Origin: an uncultured Alphaproteobacteria bacterium | GTDB taxonomy: Bacteria > Pseudomonadota > Alphaproteobacteria > Rhodobacterales > Rhodobacteraceae | Direction: 5' to 3' | DNA length: 64,000 bases | Assembly (NCBI GenBank): GCA_902599445.1 | Contig: CACKFK010000001.1 | Coordinates: 15,136-79,135, forward strand | Part shown: piece by piece, positions 6,193 to 52,203 of the stretch | Layout: every line of letters starts with the position of its first letter | How positions within the stretch are numbered: the first letter of the stretch is position 1 | Position numbers and translations under genes: made by a program | The notes under the pieces: generated by a model | Database searches by the model: none | The model's input: only the letters and a program-made list of their open reading frames with translations | What the model was told of the DNA's origin: nothing

Positions 6193-7386
6193 CTAACCTT
6201 TCACTGCTTTTACAATCTTTTTGGCGGCATCGGAAAGATTGTCTGCGGCAATCACATTTAGACCACTATCATTAATAATTTTTTTGCCAGTATCTACATT
6301 AGTACCTTCCAGCCTTACTACTAGTGGAACTTGTAGGCCTACGTTCTTTACAGCTTCAACCACCCCCTCAGCAATGACATCGCAACGCATAATACCACCA
6401 AAGATGTTAACAAGTATTCCCTTAACATTTTTATCAGATGTAATAATCTTGAAGGCTTCAGTTACTTTTTCCTTTGTTGCTCCTCCTCCAACGTCGAGAA
6501 AGTTTGCAGGTTCGGATCCAAATAATTTTATAATATCCATGGTAGCCATAGCCAAGCCGGCACCATTAACCATACAGCCAATTTCTCCATCTAAAGCTAT
6601 GTAGTTAAGGTCAAATTTTGATGCAGCTAATTCTTTTGGATCTTCTTCCGTTTCATCGTGAAATGCGAGAACTGATGGTTGCCTATACATAGCATTGCTA
6701 TCAAAACCCATCTTGCAATCTAAACAAACTAGTGCACCGTCCTTTGTCAATATAAGAGGGTTAATTTCCAGCATCTCACAATCTTTTTCAGTAAATAATC
6801 GAAAGAGTTTCTGTACCAGTTTGACACATTCCTTGATCTGTTTTCCTTCAAGACCAAGGGCAAAAGCTACTCGGCGACCATGAAAGCCAGAAAGACCTGA
6901 TGCAGGATCCACAGTGAATGATAGTATGCGTTCAGGGGTATTAGCTGCAACCTCTTCAATATCCATACCGCCATCTCTAGAAGCCACGAATGCAACTCGT
7001 GAAGTTGCTCTGTCAATCAATATAGCTAGGTAGAATTCTTTTGTTATTTCGCAACCCTCTTCAATATAAACCCTGCCTACCTGTTTTCCAGCAGATCCGG
7101 TTTGTTTTGTTACAAGCGTCCTACCAAGCATTTTTTGGGCTTGTTCAGCAGCATCGGATGCAGATTGGGCCAATCTTACCCCACCCTTTGTTCCTGCACT
7201 TTCTTCTATAAATGTACCTTTCCCTCTACCCCCGGCGTGGATTTGAGCTTTAACTACCCACAATGGGCCATCAAGTTCTCCTGCAGCCGTTTTTGCCTCC
7301 TCAGCTCTTAAAACAATCCTCCCGTCCAAAACGGGAGCTCCATATTCTCTTAGAAATTGCTTGGCCTGGTATTCATGAATATTCAT
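6193..7386 (-). CDS. sucC: Succinyl-CoA synthetase beta subunit (ADP-forming)
   Basis: The ORF runs to 7452, but the conserved N-terminus [16 protein letters not shown] starts at the ATG at 7386. The 22-codon upstream extension has no counterpart in SucC proteins. ATP-grasp fold protein. Confidence 0.93.
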
Positions 7387-8551: not shown

Positions 8552-8805
8552 CTAAATAATCCCAATTTATAAAGCAAACCATCATTAAGTTACAAGTATC
8601 TAAAGTTGCGGTAAGGTCAAGCCATATTGATTTCAAGATTAATTTGCTATACAATAAAATCAATAAATTGGTATCTAAGTTGACTTAGCAAAGGCTCTAA
8701 ATGGACCTAAAAAGCCAATTATTTATTACAACCCCATATAACCCGATAAATAATGGTTGGGTTTTGGACATTTATTTAAGTTATAATCGTATCTAAGGTT
8801 TGTGC

Positions 8806-9366
8806 ATGACTTGGCTGATAGTTGGGCTAATATTTTTTTTCGGGGCTCATTTGCAAAAAAGATTGATGCCATCACTCAGACCACGATTAGTAGACAGATT
8901 AGGTGAGAACGCGCTTAAGGGCATTATCGCCTTGATTTCGGCAGTTGGGTTGGCCCTGATAATTCTAGGATTTCGACACGAGGGGTCTATACCACTTTAT
9001 GATTTAGGAGCATCAGGTCTCTTTTTGAATAACTTAGCAATGATGCTAGCTGTAGCCTCCTTAGTTTTAGGTCATTCTAAAAGCCGTTTAAGAAAATATG
9101 TCAGGCACCCCATGCTTTTAAGCATCATTTTTTGGTCATTAGGTCATTTGTTAGCAAATGGGGACTCAAAATCGGTGATCCTTTTTCTTAGTTTTGGTCT
9201 TTGGTCTTTTTTAGAGATTAAGCTGATAAATAGCTCCGTTCCTCATCCTCAGTCGTTCACTAATGGTAGTCTAAAAGGTGATATCAGTTTCTTGATAATT
9301 GCCACACTAGCTTACTTTATAATTTCTGTAGTACACCTTTATCTGGGGGTTAATCCATTTTATTGA
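8806..9366 (+). CDS. NnrU-family integral membrane protein
   Basis: Polytopic membrane ORF with the NnrU-like block RHPMLLSIIFWSLGHLLANGD. The ATG at 8806 is preceded by AAGG. The track ORF starts two codons earlier at a TTG. Confidence 0.65.
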   Translation: MTWLIVGLIFFFGAHLQKRLMPSLRPRLVDRLGENALKGIIALISAVGLALIILGFRHEGSIPLYDLGASGLFLNNLAMMLAVASLVLGHSKSRLRKYVRHPMLLSIIFWSLGHLLANGDSKSVILFLSFGLWSFLEIKLINSSVPHPQSFTNGSLKGDISFLIIATLAYFIISVVHLYLGVNPFY

Positions 9367-9540
9367 ACAATATATGTGTTTATAATTTTTTGAGACTAGC
9401 CTCATAGGTTTACTCACGAGTTTAGGTTAGTTCCTGGGTGACAACAGAGAAAATTGTCGTTAGGGTAACACCAAATTAAGCCTTGAAAAAAATCACGCTC
9501 TAGCTAACGAATTTAAGCAAGATTAGGAAGTTAAAATTAG

Positions 9541-9933
9541 ATGACCCGAGATCCACAAAACCGCCCCCTTTCGCCTCATCTGACCATATACAGACCTCAG
9601 TTAAATTCCGTTCTGTCTATCATGCATCGTATTACTGGGATAGTCCTCTTTGTCGGATTAGTTTTATTAATTTTGTGGTTTTTTTCATTAGCTCTGGGTC
9701 AAGCTGGTTTTGAGCTGTTTGGTATGTTGATCAATTCCCTTATAGGCAGACTAATATTGATCGGTTCTCTCTGTGCTCTTTGGTATCATTTTTTTGCAGG
9801 AGTAAGACACCTTTTCTGGGATATTGGGATAGGTTTTAATTTGTTGTGGGTACAAAGATCTTCCTATGCTGTAATTATAGCTACTATATCATTAACAATT
9901 GCTAGTGTATTGATTGGAGTGTTTTCAGGTTGA
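9541..9933 (+). CDS. sdhC: Succinate dehydrogenase cytochrome b556 subunit
   Basis: 130 aa with RPLSPHLTIYRPQLNSVLSIMHRITG, the typical SdhC N-terminus, and three TM helices. It is the first gene of the sdh cluster. Confidence 0.92.
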   Translation: MTRDPQNRPLSPHLTIYRPQLNSVLSIMHRITGIVLFVGLVLLILWFFSLALGQAGFELFGMLINSLIGRLILIGSLCALWYHFFAGVRHLFWDIGIGFNLLWVQRSSYAVIIATISLTIASVLIGVFSG

Positions 9934-22766: not shown

Positions 22767-23225
22767 TTAAGAAACAGCTGTAATTGCCTCTTTTGTCATG
22801 GACCCTGGGACAATTGTTACTGGCACAGGCAATGTACCTCCTTGTCTAGCTACTAGTTGAGTAACCAAGGGTCCTGGGCCTTCACTCGACATACCTGCAC
22901 CTAATACAATAATACCAACTTCCGGATCATCCTGTACTTGAGCTAATACTTCTGTAACTTTATCCCCCTCTCTTATTACCAGTTCAGGAGTTATACCTTC
23001 TTCCTTTTCTAGGATTTCAGAGAAAATCTTAAAGTGTTCTTTTATTCTCTCTTTGGCTTCAAATTTCATTTGCTCTGCAACCCCAAGCCAATGCTGGAAT
23101 TCTTCAGGAGCTATAATACCTAATATTTCAACCTGCCCGCCAGTTTTTGATGCGCGTATGGCTGCAAATCTGAGTGCATTAACAAATTCAGGACTGTCGT
23201 CCATTACCACCAAAAATTTTCGCAT
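22767..23225 (-). CDS. Universal stress protein (UspA family)
   Basis: 152 aa with a Usp-like alpha/beta pattern (VVMDDSPE ... IIVLGA ... PVTIVPG). Confidence 0.75.
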   Translation of the reverse strand: MRKFLVVMDDSPEFVNALRFAAIRASKTGGQVEILGIIAPEEFQHWLGVAEQMKFEAKERIKEHFKIFSEILEKEEGITPELVIREGDKVTEVLAQVQDDPEVGIIVLGAGMSSEGPGPLVTQLVARQGGTLPVPVTIVPGSMTKEAITAVS

Positions 23226-43986: not shown

Positions 43987-44026
43987 TGTTTGGTTATCTT
44001 TTTGAAGAGAATTTTGGAAAGGTAAA

Positions 44027-44365
44027 ATGGTGATTAGTACAAAGTTTAGTTGTGTTATTATAATCTTCTTATTTTTGTCAGCGTGTAATTCAGGTTATCA
44101 GGGTGGATATACTGAGTATGGTGCTCCAGTTCAATTAAAAGTAGAAGTTGAACCAAGTAAAAGTACTGTAAAAGGAGAATGTTTGGCGGACACCCTTAGT
44201 TTCCTTGTTGGACAACCGGAAACAGCTTTGGCGGCCATGGAGTATCCTGCTAATACTCGTGTATTTTCACAAGGGCAAGAAGTGAATTTTGAAAATGACA
44301 ATCCCTCCAGGTTAAATTTAGTTGTTGGTGCGGAGCGAAGGATAGTGAATATTTTTTGTGGTTAG
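44027..44365 (+). CDS. Peptidase-inhibitor I78-like small lipoprotein
   Basis: 112 aa. A signal peptide ends in the lipobox LSAC. The C-terminal pattern LVGQP...TRVFSQGQEVNFENDNPSRLNLVVGAERRIVNIFCG resembles the I78 family signature ending in CG. Confidence 0.6.
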   Translation: MVISTKFSCVIIIFLFLSACNSGYQGGYTEYGAPVQLKVEVEPSKSTVKGECLADTLSFLVGQPETALAAMEYPANTRVFSQGQEVNFENDNPSRLNLVVGAERRIVNIFCG

Positions 44366-44389
44366 AGGTTATACAGATGAAACCGGATA

Positions 44390-47194
44390 TTATATCTTAT
44401 CAAGTATAGGTCTAAGAAGTTTTAATGGATGATCTCTTAAAGTTAGACCAAATGTCTTTAGGTCTTTTTTAACTTGCTTTCCTGCTGATAGACTGGGGAG
44501 TTTGGTTGCTTTATTAGGTTTTTCATTTTTATCAATAAGGGGCATTTTTTTACTCGAATTAAGAGCATATATTTCCCATAAAGCTTCATGGCGGTTTTTA
44601 TTCATGCATGCGAAACAATCGGCTTTAGCTAAAAGAACCATGGTTGCATAGTTCACTTTTGTTTTATTCCAAAACGTCTTAATTGTTGCGTAACTTCTTT
44701 TTCTTTTTTCTTCAATTATTACTGCATCTACTCTTAAAAAGCCTTTTATGAGACGAAGTCCTAAACGCAAACCTATATTGTGCGAAGACCTTTTTTCTAT
44801 TTTGTGATCCCAGTTACTATGGTTTGCTGAAACCGGATAGATTTTTACACCATGTCTTTCTGCATCTTGTATAATTTGGTAAGGTTTATAAAATCCCATT
44901 GGCTGAGAATTAAGTAATGCACACGTGAAAATCTCTGGATAATAGGCTTTTATCCACGCCGAGGCATAAACTAATAAAGCAAAGCTGGCTGCATGACTTT
45001 CTGGAAAACCATATTCTCCAAAACCCTCTATTTGAGAGAAACAGCGTTCAGCAAATTCATTTGTGTATCCATTATATAACATTCCTAATATGAATCTTTT
45101 TTTGAATGTTTGAATTTCTCCTTCTTTCCTAAATTTACTAAAAGCTTTTCTTAATTGATCAGCTTCTTCAGCAGAAAAGTCTGCAGCCACGATAGCAATT
45201 TTCATGACCTGCTCTTGAAATAATGGAACACCTAGTGTTTTTCCTAAAACTGAACCCAGTTCATTAGATGGTAGAGTGATTTTTTCAATTCCTTGCCTTC
45301 GTCTTAAATAGGGATGAACCATATCTCCTTGTATTGGCCCTGGTCTAATAATTGCAATTTGGATAACTAGATCATAGAAGCATCTCGGAAGCATTCTTGG
45401 TAGAAAATTCATTTGAGCACGACTTTCAACCTGGAATATCCCAATGCTATCTGCCTTACATAACATTTCATAAACCTGGGGTTCTTCTTTCGGGATAGTG
45501 GATAAAGAATATTGGAGCCCATAAATATCGTTAATAAGGCTAAAAGCTTTGCGAATACAAGTAAGTATTCCAAGGCCTAAAATATCAATTTTGAGTATTC
45601 CAAGTACTGCAATATCTTCTTTATCCCAGCAAACCATTGTTCTATTTTTCATACGTGCAGCTTGAATGGGTATAAGTTCATCTAATCGCTGGTTAGTAAT
45701 TATAAAACCGCCTGTGTGTTGTCCTAAATGACGAGGAAAACCATAGATTTTAGAAGCCAGAATCAAAATTTTATTTATTTGAGGAGAGGCAGTTTTTGTA
45801 CTCAACTTTTGCCGGTATGAACCTTTGGTATACTCAATATTCCCCAGATTATATTGTGTAATGATTGTATTACTAAGATCTTTTGAAAGGCCCATTACCT
45901 TGCTAACTTCACGAAGCGCCTGACGTTTTTTATAATGAATAACAGTGGCACAAATTCCAGCCTTATATCGACCAAACTTTTTATAGATGTATTGGATTAT
46001 TTCTTCACGTCTTTCATGTTCAAAATCAACATCAATATCTGGAGGTTCATTTCTGGCTTCTGATATAAACCTCTCAAAAACCATTGTACCGATTTCAGGA
46101 CTTACAGCGGTAATCCCTAGAGCATAGCACACCACTGAATTGGCCGCTGAACCACGGCCTTGGTATAAAATAGCTCTTGATTTTGCGAACGCCACAATAT
46201 CATAAACAGTCAGAAAATAAGGAGCATAATTTAACTTCTTTATTAGCTGCAATTCACGATTCACTTGTGATTGTATTTTTGAGGGTATTTTTTGGGGATA
46301 ACGGAATTTCAAACCATTTGCTGTTAAGTTAACAAGTCTTCTTTGTGGGGATTGGTTTTTTATAATTTCACTAGGGTATTCGTACTTTAATTCGCTCAAA
46401 GAAAAGTTGCATTCAAGTAAGATTTTTTGGTTATTTTCTAGAGCTGATTGATATTTTTGAAATATTCTTTCCAGTTCTAAAGGGCCTCTTAAGTATTGTT
46501 CGCCATTTAGTGTAGCTTTAGTACCAAGTTCCTTTACAGTACATTTATTTCTGATTGCACTTAGTACATCGATCAGATTCTGACGTGATTTATCATGCAT
46601 TATTGGCATGCATGAGGCTACAAGCCTTAACTTGAAAATTGAGGATAGTCTGGCGATATTTCGAAATCTAGTGCTGTCTAAGCTGTCATATTTAGGAGAT
46701 AATATCATATAAGAATTTGATAGGTTTTTGGATAACTTTTGGGTGCTCCTGATCCAGTTTTTTAATATTAGTGGATCTTCAGATTCTTCTGGTGGGTGTA
46801 TTAAAAAAATTAATCCCCCTCTTAGGGAAATAATTCTTTGTAACGATGGATGTCTTATATCATTGTAGTTTGTGGAAGTGATTGTTGTTAATATACGGCA
46901 CAAGTTTTTCCAGCCCTTAAGATTTTTTACTATAGTAGTAATTGAAAAGTTATCTTTTGTAATAATTCGAGCTCCAAAAATTAATTTGAGTAATGATGAT
47001 TTATTTTTAGATAAGCTGCTAATGGCAGAGTATGCTTTTACTACACCAGCAACTGAATTTTCATCAGTGATTGCCAAACCACTAAGATCCAATTTTATAG
47101 CTTGTTTGACGTATTCCTCAGGATGACTTCCACCCTTTAGAAAACTAAAATTCGATAAAACACCAAACTCTGCTAGAGATCTTTTGTTCACCAT
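44390..47194 (-). CDS. dnaE2: Error-prone DNA polymerase DnaE2 (ImuC), apparently lacking the C-terminal OB-fold region
   Basis: 934 aa with an N-terminal PHP domain (LSNFSFLKGGSHPEEYV), the Pol III alpha core (GRGSAANSVVCYALGIT, PPDIDVDFEH, SRAQMNF) and the HhH region. The ORF ends DHPLKLLRPILDKI, where homologues continue into an OB-fold. Confidence 0.9.
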   Translation of the reverse strand: MVNKRSLAEFGVLSNFSFLKGGSHPEEYVKQAIKLDLSGLAITDENSVAGVVKAYSAISSLSKNKSSLLKLIFGARIITKDNFSITTIVKNLKGWKNLCRILTTITSTNYNDIRHPSLQRIISLRGGLIFLIHPPEESEDPLILKNWIRSTQKLSKNLSNSYMILSPKYDSLDSTRFRNIARLSSIFKLRLVASCMPIMHDKSRQNLIDVLSAIRNKCTVKELGTKATLNGEQYLRGPLELERIFQKYQSALENNQKILLECNFSLSELKYEYPSEIIKNQSPQRRLVNLTANGLKFRYPQKIPSKIQSQVNRELQLIKKLNYAPYFLTVYDIVAFAKSRAILYQGRGSAANSVVCYALGITAVSPEIGTMVFERFISEARNEPPDIDVDFEHERREEIIQYIYKKFGRYKAGICATVIHYKKRQALREVSKVMGLSKDLSNTIITQYNLGNIEYTKGSYRQKLSTKTASPQINKILILASKIYGFPRHLGQHTGGFIITNQRLDELIPIQAARMKNRTMVCWDKEDIAVLGILKIDILGLGILTCIRKAFSLINDIYGLQYSLSTIPKEEPQVYEMLCKADSIGIFQVESRAQMNFLPRMLPRCFYDLVIQIAIIRPGPIQGDMVHPYLRRRQGIEKITLPSNELGSVLGKTLGVPLFQEQVMKIAIVAADFSAEEADQLRKAFSKFRKEGEIQTFKKRFILGMLYNGYTNEFAERCFSQIEGFGEYGFPESHAASFALLVYASAWIKAYYPEIFTCALLNSQPMGFYKPYQIIQDAERHGVKIYPVSANHSNWDHKIEKRSSHNIGLRLGLRLIKGFLRVDAVIIEEKRKRSYATIKTFWNKTKVNYATMVLLAKADCFACMNKNRHEALWEIYALNSSKKMPLIDKNEKPNKATKLPSLSAGKQVKKDLKTFGLTLRDHPLKLLRPILDKI

Positions 47195-47200
47195 TTGTTC
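47186..47200 (-). promoter_or_regulatory. Alphaproteobacterial-type LexA (SOS) box overlapping the dnaE2 start codon
   Basis: Plus strand reads GTTCACCATTTGTTC, that is GTTC-N7-GTTC; on the coding strand GAACAAATGGTGAAC. The dnaE2 ATG lies inside the spacer. The flanks are nearly identical to the box at imuB. Confidence 0.7.
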
Positions 47201-47244
47201 TATTTTCTTTGCAGTTTACTATATTTTTTGTTAAAGGGCATAGG

Positions 47245-48162
47245 TCATTTTTGGAGAGGTTTTAGCTTGAAAATCATATAATGATTATATTTAAGGAATA
47301 AGTCTTTGGAACGTGTGTTCTCAAATAATCTATTTTCCAGGCGTAGTCTCCTTCGTTTACTGAGTAATAGTTTATACAGTATACCTAGGAATCTTAAACT
47401 CATAGGTCGGGTGGTTTTTAGACTGCGAATTAACCTATTTATAGAAAATCCAATGATATTATAAAACTGCTGTTCCAATTCAATTGAGGGTGCAACATCC
47501 TTGGTTATTTCTTCCTCAGTGATAATTTCGAGTTGTTGTCTTTTAATTTCAGATTCCATACTAGCCAAGGAAGGACCTCCTCCCGGTTTACGGAATATGC
47601 CAGTGTGTTTTTGTGCTGATCGAAAACAATCAGCGATTAGTATCTCCCCATCTTCGCTTAACAAATGTATTGCTTTTTGAAGTGCGATCTTCACTGGTAT
47701 ATATTGAAAACTTTCTGCATATAGACATAAATCGAATTTAATATTTTTTTTTGGGGTGTATTCTTCAAATGTAATAGGGTGGATCTTAGCCTTTCCCTTC
47801 GTGTTTTTTTCTGCACGCTCTGCCAATATACAGCTAGGTATTACTATTGTCACTTGATGACCTAGGTCTATTAAATACTTGGCTATCTGGCCTGAACCTC
47901 CACCTATATCTAATATTCTTAATTTTTTATTGGTCTTTTGCCTAGGCAAATATTTGAACAAATACTGGGTATAAGCTTCTTGCGCCTTCCCTAAGTTTTC
48001 TAAATTTACGTCTAATCCCTTCCAGTACCCATAATGCAAGTGTTCTTTCCCTGTGATAAAGCTCACAACCCTGAGAGCTATATCCAAACCGACTGCCCGA
48101 GAACTTTCCTGGGATTTTTTATTCTTACTATTTGTCGTCATACTAACTTTGAATCCTTCCAT
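47245..48162 (-). CDS. Class I SAM-dependent methyltransferase of unknown substrate
   Basis: 305 aa with SAM-binding motif I (ILDIGGGSGQIAKYL), an upstream HLHYGYW block and post-I acidic residues. It sits between imuB and dnaE2 on the same strand. Confidence 0.8.
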   Translation of the reverse strand: MEGFKVSMTTNSKNKKSQESSRAVGLDIALRVVSFITGKEHLHYGYWKGLDVNLENLGKAQEAYTQYLFKYLPRQKTNKKLRILDIGGGSGQIAKYLIDLGHQVTIVIPSCILAERAEKNTKGKAKIHPITFEEYTPKKNIKFDLCLYAESFQYIPVKIALQKAIHLLSEDGEILIADCFRSAQKHTGIFRKPGGGPSLASMESEIKRQQLEIITEEEITKDVAPSIELEQQFYNIIGFSINRLIRSLKTTRPMSLRFLGILYKLLLSKRRRLRLENRLFENTRSKDLFLKYNHYMIFKLKPLQK

Positions 48163-48195
48163 GCAATTACAATAAATGCATAATAATATATTTCA

Positions 48196-49740
48196 TTAGC
48201 AGAACTGGCCTTGTATTAACCAGGTATTTTTATAATCATTTACTCCAGAATTTTTTCTTGAATTGAATAACCAAAAATGAGATCCACAAGTTGATTTGAC
48301 TTGCCAATAATGACGTTCTGCATTTTCATGATTTTTTTTAACCAACCACCAATTTGATGAAATCCGTTCAGGACCTATAGCTTTTGAAATTTCATATTTT
48401 TGACCACCCCAAGAAAACAATCTTGGAGGTTTATCACTTCCCAATTTTGAGATTTGTTTTAACATTATTATTGGTTGGGGTTCAAAGAGTATTTTAGGTC
48501 TTGCTTTATGTTGTATAGGCCAATTGTCTATTTGCAAATTATTTGCTGGTGATGTGAAAATATAACTTTTTTCAGGTATGTGGCTTTCTCTTGGGGAGAA
48601 AACTCTTACCGCTTCTTCCCCTAATCTATTTTTTAGTTTTTCAACTAATTGATAAATAACATCACTATCCTTTTCTAACTTAGTGAAAGTTTTTTCTTTT
48701 TCTACTTTAGAGTCAAGGAGCTCTTCTTGTTCCTCAATTACGGGATAAGTTTCTGGAATTTCAACTTTAATACTAAGTATTTCAGGCAGATCTTTTTGCT
48801 CAAGAAGTTTTGTCGCAAATATATTTACTATCCGTATATCAGAATTAGTGGGTGTAGCTGAACGTATTTTTATTATTTTTTTAAGTTTCTTCTCACTATT
48901 GAATATTATATTTATAGTTTGAGCTCTCATATGTGAATTTTTCAATTCAATACATAGTGCTTTTATCAGTTTTTTGCTTAAATTGATGACTTGGTATTTA
49001 CAATTTACATACCTAACAAGATCTATTTTAACGTGAAATTTTGGTTCAATTTTTACAATAGTAAGAGGCTCATCTGCTTTGCCAGTAGCTTTATCAAAGA
49101 AGTTAGATACTTCACTATCAAATCGGAGATATAATTCATTTTTTGGTATTTTCTCTAGCTGATTAATAGTTTCAATACCAACATTATTTAATTTTTCAAC
49201 TGAGCTATGGCTAATACGTAAAGATTTAATTGGTAGATTAGTAATTGAATCATCAATTGAATTTCTACATATATTTTTTTCTGGGAAATGGGATTTAGCC
49301 CATGCGGCTCCAACAGTATTCGCTATACCAATCTTTGCCGTTATGTTGGAATCTCTGAGAAAAGATTGCATTTTTTTAATGCAAGAGCGCCTAATGGTAT
49401 GAGGTATATCTAATATTAAAGTAGAATCCTTTGCTACAGATATTCTAGGTGTAATACTTGAGAGCCAGAATATTATTTTGTTTAGATAAAGTTTTTTTTT
49501 CCTAAGTGGGAAGTCTTTTTTCACAATTAAATCTGGTTTTATTATCATAGCATCACTTAGTTTACTCCCTTCAATTAAGTTTGGTGTTTTACATTTATTG
49601 TTTAATTTGGAAATAAATTTTTGTTTTTTATAGGTTCTCAAGATGCAAAATGGCTTATCTCTTAACGTAGGATTCTCCATTAAGATGAGGTCTATGGATA
49701 AGTTAGAAAACCAAATTGATACGAAGAGATTTTTGTTCAT
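48196..49740 (-). CDS. imuB: ImuB (Y-family-polymerase-like accessory protein of the ImuB-DnaE2 mutasome)
   Basis: 514 aa. The N-terminal pattern (LFVSIWFSNLSIDL ... KPFCIL ... SKLSDAMIIKPDL ... LILDIPHT ... KIGIANTVGAAWAKSHF) follows the ImuB layout. It is adjacent to dnaE2 and carries an SOS box at its start. Confidence 0.8.
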   Translation of the reverse strand: MNKNLFVSIWFSNLSIDLILMENPTLRDKPFCILRTYKKQKFISKLNNKCKTPNLIEGSKLSDAMIIKPDLIVKKDFPLRKKKLYLNKIIFWLSSITPRISVAKDSTLILDIPHTIRRSCIKKMQSFLRDSNITAKIGIANTVGAAWAKSHFPEKNICRNSIDDSITNLPIKSLRISHSSVEKLNNVGIETINQLEKIPKNELYLRFDSEVSNFFDKATGKADEPLTIVKIEPKFHVKIDLVRYVNCKYQVINLSKKLIKALCIELKNSHMRAQTINIIFNSEKKLKKIIKIRSATPTNSDIRIVNIFATKLLEQKDLPEILSIKVEIPETYPVIEEQEELLDSKVEKEKTFTKLEKDSDVIYQLVEKLKNRLGEEAVRVFSPRESHIPEKSYIFTSPANNLQIDNWPIQHKARPKILFEPQPIIMLKQISKLGSDKPPRLFSWGGQKYEISKAIGPERISSNWWLVKKNHENAERHYWQVKSTCGSHFWLFNSRKNSGVNDYKNTWLIQGQFC

Positions 49741-49749
49741 GTTTTGTTC
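49735..49749 (-). promoter_or_regulatory. Alphaproteobacterial-type LexA (SOS) box overlapping the imuB start codon
   Basis: Plus strand reads GTTCATGTTTTGTTC, that is GTTC-N7-GTTC; on the coding strand GAACAAAACATGAAC. The imuB ATG lies inside the box. Confidence 0.7.
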
Positions 49750-49789
49750 TATATTTTAATTTGATGTTTCTAATAAGATTGAAAGAAAA

Positions 49790-50212
49790 CTAATTCTTTT
49801 CTTTTAGCCGGATTATTATATCAACACTGGTAATTTCAGAATTGATAGGTGGTTCTGGTAGGTTCTTAATCTCTAAGAAATTTCCTGGGGTATCAGTGAG
49901 TTGTCCGGTGTCTTCCCAGTAAAAATGAGAATGATTATCAAGTCTGGTATCGAAATAGCATCGTGCTCCATCCACTATCACTTTATTAAGAAGCCCTGCC
50001 TCTGAGAAAGTATGAAGAGTATTGTATACTGTAGCTAAAGATACTGAAATCTTTGCTTCTTTTGCTTTCTCAAATAACCTCTCTGCAGTAATATGTTGGT
50101 GGCTGTTGTTTCCTACTAGAAGGTTTGCAAGCTCAATTCTTTGCTGAGTTGGTCTCAATCCAACCTTATAAAGCCAATTGGTGACACAGAATTTATCTTG
50201 AGTATCCATCAT
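49790..50212 (-). CDS. irr: Fur-family regulator, Irr-like (iron response regulator)
   Basis: 140 aa with a winged-helix region (LRPTQQRIELANLL ... ITAERLF ... SLATVYNTLHTFSEAGLL). It has no CxxC zinc motifs and carries an HxH motif (HSH). It is divergent from fabA-fabB-fabI, the position of irr in several Rhizobiales as I recall. Confidence 0.75.
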   Translation of the reverse strand: MMDTQDKFCVTNWLYKVGLRPTQQRIELANLLVGNNSHQHITAERLFEKAKEAKISVSLATVYNTLHTFSEAGLLNKVIVDGARCYFDTRLDNHSHFYWEDTGQLTDTPGNFLEIKNLPEPPINSEITSVDIIIRLKEKN

Positions 50213-50426
50213 TTCAAAAAAATTATACTTAACATCTCAATAATATTATTAAACTTCTTTAACTTCAATATCAAATTCTATTCACTGTCTGATTGAGGTA
50301 TGAATTTTGACAAGGTTAAAGATTTCTAATTCTTAGAACAATTACGGTAAATGTTGCACCTAACTTAATAACAGTGATAAGACTAGCTAGTCATAAGAAA
50401 TAAGTAAAATAGAATTGGTTCTAAAA

Positions 50427-50918
50427 ATGGCTATAGATTTTGAGGATTTGCTAAAGTGTTCACGCGGAGAAATGTTTGGTCTTGGTAATCCACAGTTACC
50501 TTTGCCCCCAATGTTAATGTTCGACAGTATCAAAGAAATCTCAGATGACTCTGGTCTACACGGCAAGGGCCATGTCATTGCAGAACTGAAAATTAAACCA
50601 GATTTATGGTTTTTTGATTGTCATTTTGTAGGTGATCCTGTGATGCCGGGGTGTTTAGGCTTAGATGCCTTATGGCAACTAACAGGTTTTAATTTGGGTT
50701 GGAGAGGTTTCAAAGGGCGTGGAAGAGCACTAGGAGTCGGAGAAGTAAAATTTAAAGGTATGGTCACTCCAGAAACAAAATCTATAACTTATGAAATAAA
50801 CTTTGTTAGAGTATTAGATAGAAAACTTAAACTTGGGATATCTGATGGCCAAGTTTTCGCAGATGGTGAAGAAATCTATGTGGCCAAAGGTTTAAGAGTT
50901 GGTTTATTTGAAAGTTAA
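50427..50918 (+). CDS. fabA: 3-hydroxydecanoyl-ACP dehydratase / trans-2-decenoyl-ACP isomerase
   Basis: Close to E. coli FabA throughout ([39 protein letters not shown]). The ATG at 50427 is preferred over the TTG at 50415. Confidence 0.95.
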
Positions 50919-50975: not shown

Positions 50976-52203
50976 ATGCACAGAGTAGTTATAACCGGTT
51001 TGGGAATTGTATCTTCGATAGGGAACAATGCAGGTGAAGTTACGGAATCTTTGAAAATGGGTTGTTCTGGTATCACATTTTCTGATGAATATGAATTTCA
51101 CGGCTTTAGATCACAGGTTCATGCTAAACCAAGAATAAAACTAGAGGATTCTGTCGACAAGAGGCAGTTACGTTTTATGGGTGATGGAGCAGCCTATAAC
51201 TATATTGCAATGGAGCAAGCCATTGCTGATAGTGGTTTGACGGAGAAGGATGTTTCAAACGAAAGAACAGGTTTAATAATGGGGTCAGGGGGGCCATCAA
51301 CAAAAAACCTTTTCGCAGCACATCAAATCGTCCTTGAAAAAAGAAGCCCAAAAAGGATGGGACCTTTTATGGTGACGCGGGGCATGTCATCTACTAATTC
51401 TGCATGTCTGGCTACACCTTTCAAAATAAAAGGTGTTAACTATTCAATTTCATCAGCTTGTTCTACTTCAGCTCATTGTATTGGCAATGGTTTAGAGCAA
51501 ATACAGCTAGGTAAACAAGACATTGTCTTTGCGGGTGGGGGGGGAAGAATTAGATTGGACCCTATCCTGTTTATTTGACGCAATGGGTGCTATGTCGAGC
51601 AAATATAATGACAAACCAGAAACTGCTGCAAGAGCCTATGATCAAGATAGAGATGGATTTGTGATTTCAGGTGGAGGTGGGGTTTTGGTACTTGAAGAAC
51701 TTAATCATGCTAGGGCTCGGGGTGCAAAAATTTATGCTGAGATAACTGGATATGGTGCCACTTCAGACGGTCACGACATGGTAGCACCTTCTGGAGAAGG
51801 AGGAGAGCGTTCAATGCGATTAGCATTGTCAACTTTAAATAATCGAAAGATATCCTACATAAATAGCCACGGAACTTCAACTCCAGCAGGTGATATTGTT
51901 GAAATTGAGGCAATAAGGAAAATAAGTGATAGTTCTAAAATTCCGCCAGTTTCATCTACAAAGTCTCTTACTGGGCATAGCCTTGGTGCGGCAGGGGTTC
52001 ATGAGGCCATTTATTCTATATTAATGATGAAGGGTGGTTTTATAGCAGCTAGTGCAAATGTTTTTAATTTGGATGAATCATTAAAGTCAAAGGAAATAGT
52101 TACAAAACGCCAGGACGAGGTTCTTTTTGATACAGTTCTGTCGAATAGTTTTGGATTTGGAGGCACAAATGCTACTTTGGCTTTCAGCAAGCTGATTGAC
52201 TGA
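50976..52203 (+). pseudogene. fabB: Beta-ketoacyl-ACP synthase I (fabB) interrupted by a +1 frameshift in a G8 run; true pseudogene or assembly error
   Basis: ORFs 50976..51578 and 51523..52203 are the N- and C-halves of FabB. The first reads ...[11 protein letters not shown], and the second resumes with [23 protein letters not shown] (E. coli: [32 protein letters not shown]). The frames meet at G8 (51537..51544); seven G would restore the frame. Confidence 0.9.

Follow-up and report, generated by a model that had tools for sequence, protein, structure and literature searches.

What is a methyltransferase gene doing between imuB and dnaE2, two genes of the damage-inducible mutagenesis cassette? 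We addressed this question in a stretch of 64,000 nucleotides (nt) from an uncultured alphaproteobacterium (GenBank assembly GCA_902599445.1; contig CACKFK010000001.1, positions 15,136 to 79,135 of the forward strand), which is referred to here as the window. An original prediction, made from the letters of the window, had described a noncanonical SOS mutagenesis cassette and had explained the methyltransferase (MT) either as a new, damage-induced accessory of the mutasome or as an incidental insertion. Of the two, incidental insertion fits our results best, and the insertion is old and stable. We consider it likely that imuB and dnaE2 constitute a split system, i.e., two autonomous LexA-controlled halves located approximately 1 kb apart, with an unrelated housekeeping MT gene between them. 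The MT gene appears to be a conserved guest of long standing rather than an additional component of the mutagenesis machinery.

Four open reading frames (ORFs), all on the minus strand, make up the locus in the 5'-to-3' order irr, imuB, MT, and dnaE2, with gaps of 49, 33, and 50 nt (ORF map). The coordinates, gaps, and gene identities proposed earlier for imuB, MT, and dnaE2 were all confirmed by the ORF map, Pfam, and NCBIfam. The features of the locus, in window coordinates, are as follows (lengths of products in amino acids [aa]).

49790..50212, minus strand: irr, Fur-family iron response regulator, 140 aa (NF045678 IrrA, 178.7 bits; cut-off, 150); upstream edge of the locus
49735..49749, minus strand: candidate LexA operator 1, GAACAAAACATGAAC (GAAC-N7-GAAC); the imuB ATG occupies box positions 10 to 12
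48196..49740, minus strand: imuB, 514 aa (Pfam IMS and DUF6504)
47245..48162, minus strand: class I S-adenosylmethionine (SAM)-dependent MT gene, the guest gene, 305 aa (Pfam Methyltransf_23/11/25)
47186..47200, minus strand: candidate LexA operator 2, GAACAAATGGTGAAC (GAAC-N7-GAAC); the dnaE2 GTG (47191-47189) occupies box positions 10 to 12
44390..47194, minus strand: dnaE2 (imuC), error-prone C-family polymerase, short form without the OB-fold domain, 934 aa (NF004225)
44027..44365, plus strand: convergent gene, 112 aa, weak match to peptidase inhibitor I78 (PF11720, 22.5 bits, just under the cut-off); downstream edge of the locus

The Caulobacter SOS box is a direct repeat, GTTC-N7-GTTC (PMC9578287, Table 1), which reads GAAC-N7-GAAC on the other strand. 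The latter pattern occurs at only two sites in the window, both on the coding strand and both at start codons, namely, those of imuB and dnaE2. These boxes had been overlooked in the original prediction, which had correctly described MT as having no SOS box of its own; our search found no GAAC-N7-GAAC at the MT gene in the window. The total number of sites is not above chance (approximately 1.4 expected in the window, both strands), but the probability that both would lie by chance within 15 nt of the imuB and dnaE2 starts is, as a rough estimate, about 1e-7. It is the placement of the boxes, not their number, that carries the weight. Both genes, then, bear the motif by which LexA-regulon members are recognized (a direct repeat at the promoter or gene start).

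The operators are also conserved (L-numbers label comparison loci or genomes; the clades are described below). Both boxes were kept in five clade A genomes, i.e., the window, L001/L008, L009, L010, and L011. Among these, the imuB box is invariant and the spacer upstream of it is variable; at the dnaE2 box, the half-sites are fixed and the 7-nt spacer is variable. In clade C (L091 and L092), a GAAC-N7-GAAC box is found ahead of imuB and another ahead of dnaE2. Lone or separate genes have one box each, which precedes imuB in L088, L090, and L093 and lies directly upstream of dnaE2 in L020/L021, L094, and L095/L096. Judged from these motifs, imuB and dnaE2 look like two predicted LexA-controlled units, not one operon that needs MT as a bridge. 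Because dnaE2 has a conserved box of its own, it would not depend on the imuB operator, and the three genes need not form one operon. Where a canonical cassette is a single LexA unit, the locus has two conserved operators with an unrelated gene between them.

Three further observations concern the boxes. Across 13 of them (from the window, L020, L021, and L088 to L096), the extended consensus is near (T)AGAACAAAAnAnGAACA(A/T)AA. The position of the start codon inside the box in clade A is a hint of very short or absent 5' leaders. In L089, the box (6945-6959) falls within the 3' end of imuA as called and precedes the called start of imuB by 56 nt, so that either the genes were miscalled or imuB has a separate operator in this locus as well.

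The distribution of MT across genomes bears directly on its role. More than 1,200 MT homologues were detectable. MT loci were collected by contig look-ups, with 80 more from a scan of one genome per GTDB species, and were tabulated by tblastn with the window proteins. Clade A comprises the window, L001/L008, L002, L009, L010, and L011 (G+C content, 0.36 to 0.37); here, fabA is followed by irr, imuB, MT, and dnaE2 in one direction and then by the I78-like gene and acs in the opposite direction. Clade B (L003 to L007 and L012 to L019; G+C content, 0.31) includes many single-cell genomes and amounts to at least eight species-level or single-cell genomes. Its order is fabA, then irr and MT, and then the opposing I78 gene and acs, and the neighborhood is otherwise the same as that of clade A, gene for gene. 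The clade B loci contain no imuB, no dnaE2, and no GAAC-N7-GAAC. Nor did database protein searches return a B-type copy of either protein. Identity falls from 63% to 27% in the ImuB search, with nothing between, and from 76% to 54% in the DnaE2 search, leaving gaps where clade B copies would fall; clade B sequences make up most of the best 120 MT matches. On these sequence searches, clade B seems to be without imuB and dnaE2 genome-wide.

To follow selection on MT, we used the ratio of nonsynonymous to synonymous substitution rates (dN/dS). Between the window and its clade A relatives, the ratio is 0.06 to 0.08 for MT, 0.055 for acs, and 0.03 to 0.08 for fabA, and all three genes are intact. 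By clade, the MT ratios are 0.09 to 0.13 within B, 0.12 to 0.14 within A, and 0.085 in C; because these are similar, selection on MT does not appear to have been relaxed by the loss of the mutasome genes. The MT sequences are 85% identical within clade A, compared with 67% for ImuB. Since clade B kept a constrained MT after losing imuB and dnaE2, MT would be independent of the mutasome.

The idea most exposed to these data is that MT is a lineage-specific part of the ImuB/DnaE2 mutasome, co-induced with imuB, that either replaces ImuA or modifies a protein, a nucleotide, or a small molecule. The retention of MT in clade B under the same constraint speaks against it, and the remaining loci do so as well. 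In 36 higher-GC Paracoccaceae loci (L022 to L057), MT is 39 to 47% identical to that of the window and lies after gpmI-ctpA-NUDIX or in other contexts, with no imuB or dnaE2 match adjoining it and no box upstream of it; L025 and L027 have a dnaE2 fragment approximately 6.8 kb from MT. Distant homologues (30 to 35% identical) occur in Planctomycetota, Cloacimonadota, and other phyla, and MT is unlinked to imuB/dnaE2 in 30 loci from other phyla; all of the non-Paracoccaceae homologues are unlinked and boxless. Conversely, mutasome genes occur without an adjacent MT in L093 (imuB-dnaE2), L088 and L090 (imuB), and L094, L095, and L096 (dnaE2). The original prediction had asked how often MT homologues lie near imuB or dnaE2. 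Linkage holds in clades A and C, with MT near dnaE2 in L020/L021 as well, and fails in clade B, in the 36 Paracoccaceae loci, and in the 30 loci from other phyla.

The L020/L021 arrangement is one of the points in favor of an accessory role. In these loci, the order is NUDIX, MT, a secreted-looking protein of 158 to 161 aa, an interval of 200 to 480 nt containing an SOS box, and dnaE2. The coordinates of the small protein and of the box that follows it in these high-GC Paracoccaceae are as follows.

L020, 8842-9318: gene for the small protein after MT; SOS box at 9696-9710
L021, 8739-9224: gene for the small protein after MT; SOS box at 9367-9381

Because a transposase-like ORF closely follows dnaE2 at the end of the L021 contig, the L020/L021 region may be rearranged. 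We considered the 158- to 161-aa protein as a substitute for ImuA and rejected it, since it has no family match and a secreted-like start and since the SOS box lies between it and dnaE2.

Clade C, which was found through the DnaE2 search and contig look-up, places the arrangement in time. It consists of L091 (GCA_001757005.1; G+C content, 0.33) and L092 (GCA_036337105.1; 0.38), in which fabI-fabB-fabA is followed by irr, imuB, MT, and dnaE2 in one direction and then, in the opposite direction, by the I78 gene, acs, an aminotransferase gene, and, farther on, rhodanese and SMC genes. Identity to the window is 51 to 53% for MT, 51 to 54% for DnaE2, and 27% for ImuB. A neighbor-joining tree of MT (200 bootstraps) recovered A, B, C, (A,B), and ((A,B),C), each at 100%, and the clades fall in the order of the MT tree, too, when they are ranked by the identity of FabA, Irr, Acs, the aminotransferase, and the I78-like protein. 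On the basis of this tree and the clade C order, the ancestor of the three clades would already have had imuB-MT-dnaE2, and clade B would have deleted both flanking genes. The history that we propose is that MT entered between imuB and dnaE2 before the low-GC pelagic Paracoccaceae clades A, B, and C split and then stayed in place through conserved gene order, and that MT remained in clade B when imuB and dnaE2 were deleted there at a later time.

The reverse history, with MT as the original resident and with imuB and dnaE2 as later arrivals on its two sides, was dropped once clade C showed the same order. In its recent form, it would have the window's clade newly acquire imuB and dnaE2, which happened to land on either side of MT, making the arrangement young and accidental. 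The clade B irr-MT order without flanking mutasome genes and the G+C content of imuB (approximately 0.30, under that of its neighbors) are what such a gain would predict. The outgroup clade C, however, has the same irr-imuB-MT-dnaE2-I78-acs order; the ((A,B),C) topology of the MT tree has 100% bootstrap support; and the FabA, Irr, Acs, aminotransferase, and I78 identities fit the same branching. Moreover, the databases contain no close donor (outside clade A, ImuB identity does not exceed 27%), and dnaE2 lies in the same smpB-dapA/rhodanese-aminotransferase neighborhood in other Roseobacter-type genomes. We give a recent gain hardly any credence.

The MT product matches generic class I SAM-methyltransferase models only (Pfam and NCBIfam), and no NCBIfam equivalog reaches its cut-off. 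The protein carries ILDIGGGSG, and a motif search found no P-loop; the predicted fold is not RecA-like. There is likewise no [DNS]PP[YFW] motif IV and no Pfam DNA-methylase domain, so MT does not qualify as a DNA methyltransferase. Conservation in relatives raises the possibility that MT starts at the second ATG (48141), which would give 298 aa. Compared with the PDB, the MT family profile has its best sequence match in 3BUS (RebM), with which it shares an N-terminal (E/N)LH(Y/F)GYW motif.

The AlphaFold2 model of MT has a mean pLDDT (predicted local distance difference test score) of 74, with a low-confidence stretch in the first 60 residues and a confident core. Foldseek matched this model in the PDB to TleD, BezA (the geranyl pyrophosphate [GPP] C6-methyltransferase), and sarcosine/dimethylglycine methyltransferase and, further, to mycolic-acid (PcaA)/cyclopropane fatty acid synthases, phosphoethanolamine methyltransferase (PfPMT), and AtmM/RebM (probability, 1.0; TM-score, 0.5 to 0.65; sequence identity, 14 to 20%). 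The predicted structure is a Rossmann-type SAM fold with GxGxG and a C-terminal helical cap, and it is in these features that MT resembles the RebM/AtmM, TleD, BezA/GPP methyltransferase, and cyclopropane fatty acid synthase group; it differs from them in being only 14 to 20% identical and in lacking an equivalog above the cut-off. The model suggests that MT is a methyltransferase of the small-molecule or lipid type that has a helical substrate cap. The profile, motif, and predicted-structure comparisons gave no link between MT and DNA, protein methylation, or a RecA-like fold. The subfamily placement suggested in the original prediction, by profile and structure prediction, thus stopped at generic models on the profile side and yielded a small-molecule/lipid-type fold on the structural side.

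ImuB matches PF00817 IMS (30.2 bits; cut-off, 23.2), i.e., the core of the Y-family polymerases, and PF20114 (DUF6504, the ImuB C-terminal domain; 30.9 bits; cut-off, 24.2). It aligned over its full length with proteins named ImuB in their sources; SHIPE and GPERI..WW..R.YW..G..WL are kept, and the ImuB-C motifs GPERI, WW, R.YW, and G..WL are invariant in the alignment. Active DinB carries D-x-D at the corresponding N-terminal position. The N terminus of the window protein, SIWFSNLSID, resembles those of the other aligned ImuB proteins. The sequence is that of a putative catalytically inactive Y-family polymerase homologue with an ImuB-C domain. No clearly conserved QL(S/D)LF-like beta-clamp motif stood out in the ImuB alignment, of which no dedicated analysis was made. 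The dN/dS of imuB is 0.29 to 0.33 (window versus clade A relatives), and there are no stop codons. Two other properties set imuB apart: its G+C content of approximately 0.30 is the lowest of the region (neighbors, 0.36 to 0.43), and it evolves much faster than its neighbors (67% identity within clade A and 27% to clade C).

DnaE2 matches NF004225, "error-prone DNA polymerase," at 1107 bits (cut-off, 939), and all replicative DnaE models remain under their cut-offs. The catalytic motifs PDIDVDF and KIDILGLG are kept, placing the protein in the error-prone subfamily. Conservation in relatives suggests that the start is the GTG at 47191. At its other end, the protein stops at LLRPIL-DKI, just ahead of where the OB fold of the L089 DnaE2 begins, and the NF004225 match stops at profile position 939 of 1047. 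The OB fold of the canonical L089 protein is accordingly missing; the NCBIfam score still places the window protein in the family. Because the I78-like gene bounds the locus downstream, there is no space for the missing C terminus. The best 120 DnaE2 homologues (Roseobacter group) are all 920 to 1020 aa long, and none has PF01336. Elsewhere, the OB fold is present in DnaE2 of L089 and of Cypionkella (L025 and L027); the L021 protein lacks it through an internal deletion; and short, OB-less DnaE2 with intact catalytic motifs is seen in the window, L001, L091 to L096, and P0242 to P0360.

The dN/dS of dnaE2 is 0.13 to 0.21 (window versus clade A relatives). The imuB and dnaE2 ORFs are intact in every clade A and C genome. 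These data bear on the possibility that the pair is a relic, decaying and nonfunctional, on its way to the loss completed in clade B. The rapid change of imuB (dN/dS of approximately 0.3; 67% identity within clade A against 85% for MT), the lack of the OB-fold domain in DnaE2, and the dispensability of both genes in clade B all lean in that direction. Decay is nevertheless at odds with ORFs of 514 and 934 codons that remain intact in an AT-rich genome and throughout clades A and C at dN/dS well below 1, with the conservation of both operators, and with the kept polymerase catalytic and ImuB-C motifs, and the short, OB-less DnaE2 is the norm of the Roseobacter group. We therefore judge the relic explanation to be quite unlikely. 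Intact ORFs, dN/dS, and kept motifs, all read from sequence, indicate that imuB and dnaE2 are maintained.

A cassette of this kind would be expected to have imuA upstream of imuB. The locus contains none, and the earlier statement that there is no room for it holds, since the gap between irr and imuB is 49 nt. No ImuA or LexA model match was found among the 20 mid-size window ORFs scanned. The probable ImuA of L089, used as a tblastn query, had no match in the window or related loci; the sensitivity was low, because ImuA is poorly conserved and the L089 protein itself scores only 26.6 bits against NF033429. L089, a Defluviimonas/Albidovulum relative, has the canonical cassette, consisting of this probable imuA (weak NF033429 match), imuB, and a 1115-aa dnaE2 product with an OB fold. 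The other loci depart from it. In L088 (Tropicibacter oceani) and L090, imuB is alone with its own box, as is dnaE2 in L094 (Marivita), L095, and L096. In L093, imuB is separated from the dnaE2 that follows it by a 560-nt spacer, in which there is a small antisense ORF; the gene upstream is an opposite-strand MFS gene, not imuA. No imuA-like gene was recognized beside imuB in the sampled Roseobacter-type loci. The lack of imuA and the short DnaE2 are common to these loci and are not special to the window. The original description of a noncanonical cassette accordingly stands in part: the gene order is real and, being found in clades A and C, is no one-off, and the absence of imuA is not the special trait that it was taken to be.

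One gene recurs in this context. A DUF2794 gene lies directly downstream of imuB in L090 (8696-9037) and directly upstream of the SOS-boxed dnaE2 in L095 (5629-5967) and L096 (5573-5911), and its products are 74 to 76% identical between genomes with G+C contents of 0.55 and 0.39. DUF2794 may be a second housekeeping gene beside, or once between, mutasome genes. It was rejected as a hidden mutasome partner, since the SOS box lies between DUF2794 and dnaE2 and the window has no copy.

Variation of this sort has been described. Cassette composition differs between species (PMC9578287), and the parts may be dispersed, every locus having an SOS box to itself, with members sometimes missing (PMC3901139, section 6). 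In Mycobacterium tuberculosis, imuA'-imuB is apart from dnaE2 (Erill et al. 2006, as summarized in PMC3901139), and Streptomyces has an imuB-dnaE2 pair without imuA (PMC3901139). Variants that lack ImuA exist, and RecA has been proposed to substitute for ImuA (PMC6511836; Timinskas and Venclovas 2019). With the imuA-imuB-dnaE2 cassette of Caulobacter crescentus and other alphaproteobacteria, the window locus shares the ImuB-C domain, an error-prone DnaE2, and the GTTC-N7-GTTC operator (PMC9578287), as well as the expected role in damage-induced translesion synthesis. It differs from the canonical cassette in that imuA is absent, the genes are noncontiguous, there are two operators instead of one, and DnaE2 lacks the OB fold seen in L089. 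With split cassettes of the M. tuberculosis type, and with L088, L090, L094, L095, and L096, it shares separate LexA operators at imuB and dnaE2; here, however, the units are only about 1 kb apart, with one co-oriented, unrelated gene between them that is kept in clades A and C. With the ImuA-less variants, it shares a Y-family protein paired with DnaE2 and no imuA nearby. Those variants are without a typical ImuB (PMC6511836), whereas the ImuB of the window is typical and carries a fused ImuB-C domain.

The split-system reading suggests how the locus would work. LexA would bind one operator over the imuB start codon and a second over the dnaE2 start codon, as motif and conservation indicate. 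In the SOS response, DNA damage leads to RecA-stimulated cleavage of LexA, and both genes would then be derepressed. By analogy with Caulobacter and mycobacteria, the putatively inactive ImuB, with its ImuB-C domain, would recruit the catalytically intact, OB-less DnaE2 for lesion bypass. Either RecA, as suggested for variants without imuA, or a gene at another locus might take the place of ImuA. The second operator would make dnaE2 damage regulated whatever transcription arrives from the MT gene upstream, and it might, in addition, stop transcripts that run on from MT. During SOS in clades A and C, MT is perhaps transcribed by read-through from imuB, with a function independent of the mutasome.

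Several points weigh against a mere guest. The imuB-MT-dnaE2 order survived the very deep divergence between clades A and C, and selection for linkage, in addition to inertia, may account for this. In L020/L021, a third lineage with a different upstream context, MT is one gene from an SOS-boxed dnaE2, which may be more than coincidence. Finally, no terminator-like site was found between imuB and MT or between MT and dnaE2, and the 33-nt gap holds no recognizable MT promoter. Scans for sigma-70 promoters and intrinsic terminators (44000-50500) gave counts not over those of shuffled controls, and neither short gap held a site; for these reasons, the scans are uninformative on cotranscription.

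These observations, together with the absence of imuA from the locus and of any copy found in the window, also make up the case for MT as a mutasome component. Set against them are the clade B loci, the unlinked homologues, the MT-free mutasome loci, the operator of dnaE2, and a predicted fold that is of the small-molecule methyltransferase type and not RecA-like. We regard such a component as very unlikely. A more permissive version for clades A and C would have MT cotranscribed with imuB after damage and recruited as a helper of an ImuA-less, OB-less mutasome, its substrate during SOS being, for example, a small molecule, lipid, or protein, with a second, housekeeping role explaining its retention in clade B; this version, too, has little probability in our view. 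The proposal of a new damage-induced accessory was thus not borne out, given the separate dnaE2 box, the retention of MT in clade B, its unlinked homologues, and its small-molecule-type fold.

As for the surroundings, irr and the I78-like gene occupy the same places in clades A, B, and C, and the neighboring genes include fabA-fabB-fabI, irr, acs, and tricarboxylic acid cycle genes. These genes, along with the names that homologues bear, assign the window to a low-GC marine member of the Rhodobacterales/Paracoccaceae. In the window, fabB (50976-52203, plus strand), which encodes 408 aa in relatives, is present as two overlapping ORFs, with a frameshift at approximately 51535-51545 at a run of eight G's; the frameshift may be an artifact of sequencing or assembly, or it may truly disrupt this gene of unsaturated fatty acid synthesis. 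Two other ORFs, 8800-9366 (plus strand; 188 aa) and 22767-23225 (minus strand; 152 aa), have no NCBIfam match.

Both the components of the split imuB/dnaE2 system and its regulatory logic were known before, and the locus is a minor variant of a known system. What is new is that a guest gene interrupts the pair in a conserved manner, with the operators duplicated, and that imuB and dnaE2 were jointly lost in the most streamlined sister clade. The relevance is modest and lies with specialists in SOS evolution and marine genome streamlining. For annotation, gene order is no safe guide to function, as a gene may sit for a long time in a known cassette and yet be unrelated to it. In the sampled Roseobacter-type genomes, imuB and dnaE2 behave as distinct modules, each under LexA control; no adjacent imuA is recognizable in the sampled loci, and DnaE2 is OB-less. 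If imuA is absent from whole genomes, these bacteria would offer a useful test of RecA replacing ImuA alongside a typical ImuB. The clades also provide a natural experiment, in which close streamlined marine relatives lost imuB and dnaE2 together and kept the gene between them, and this joint loss argues for ImuB and DnaE2 depending on each other and for MT being independent.

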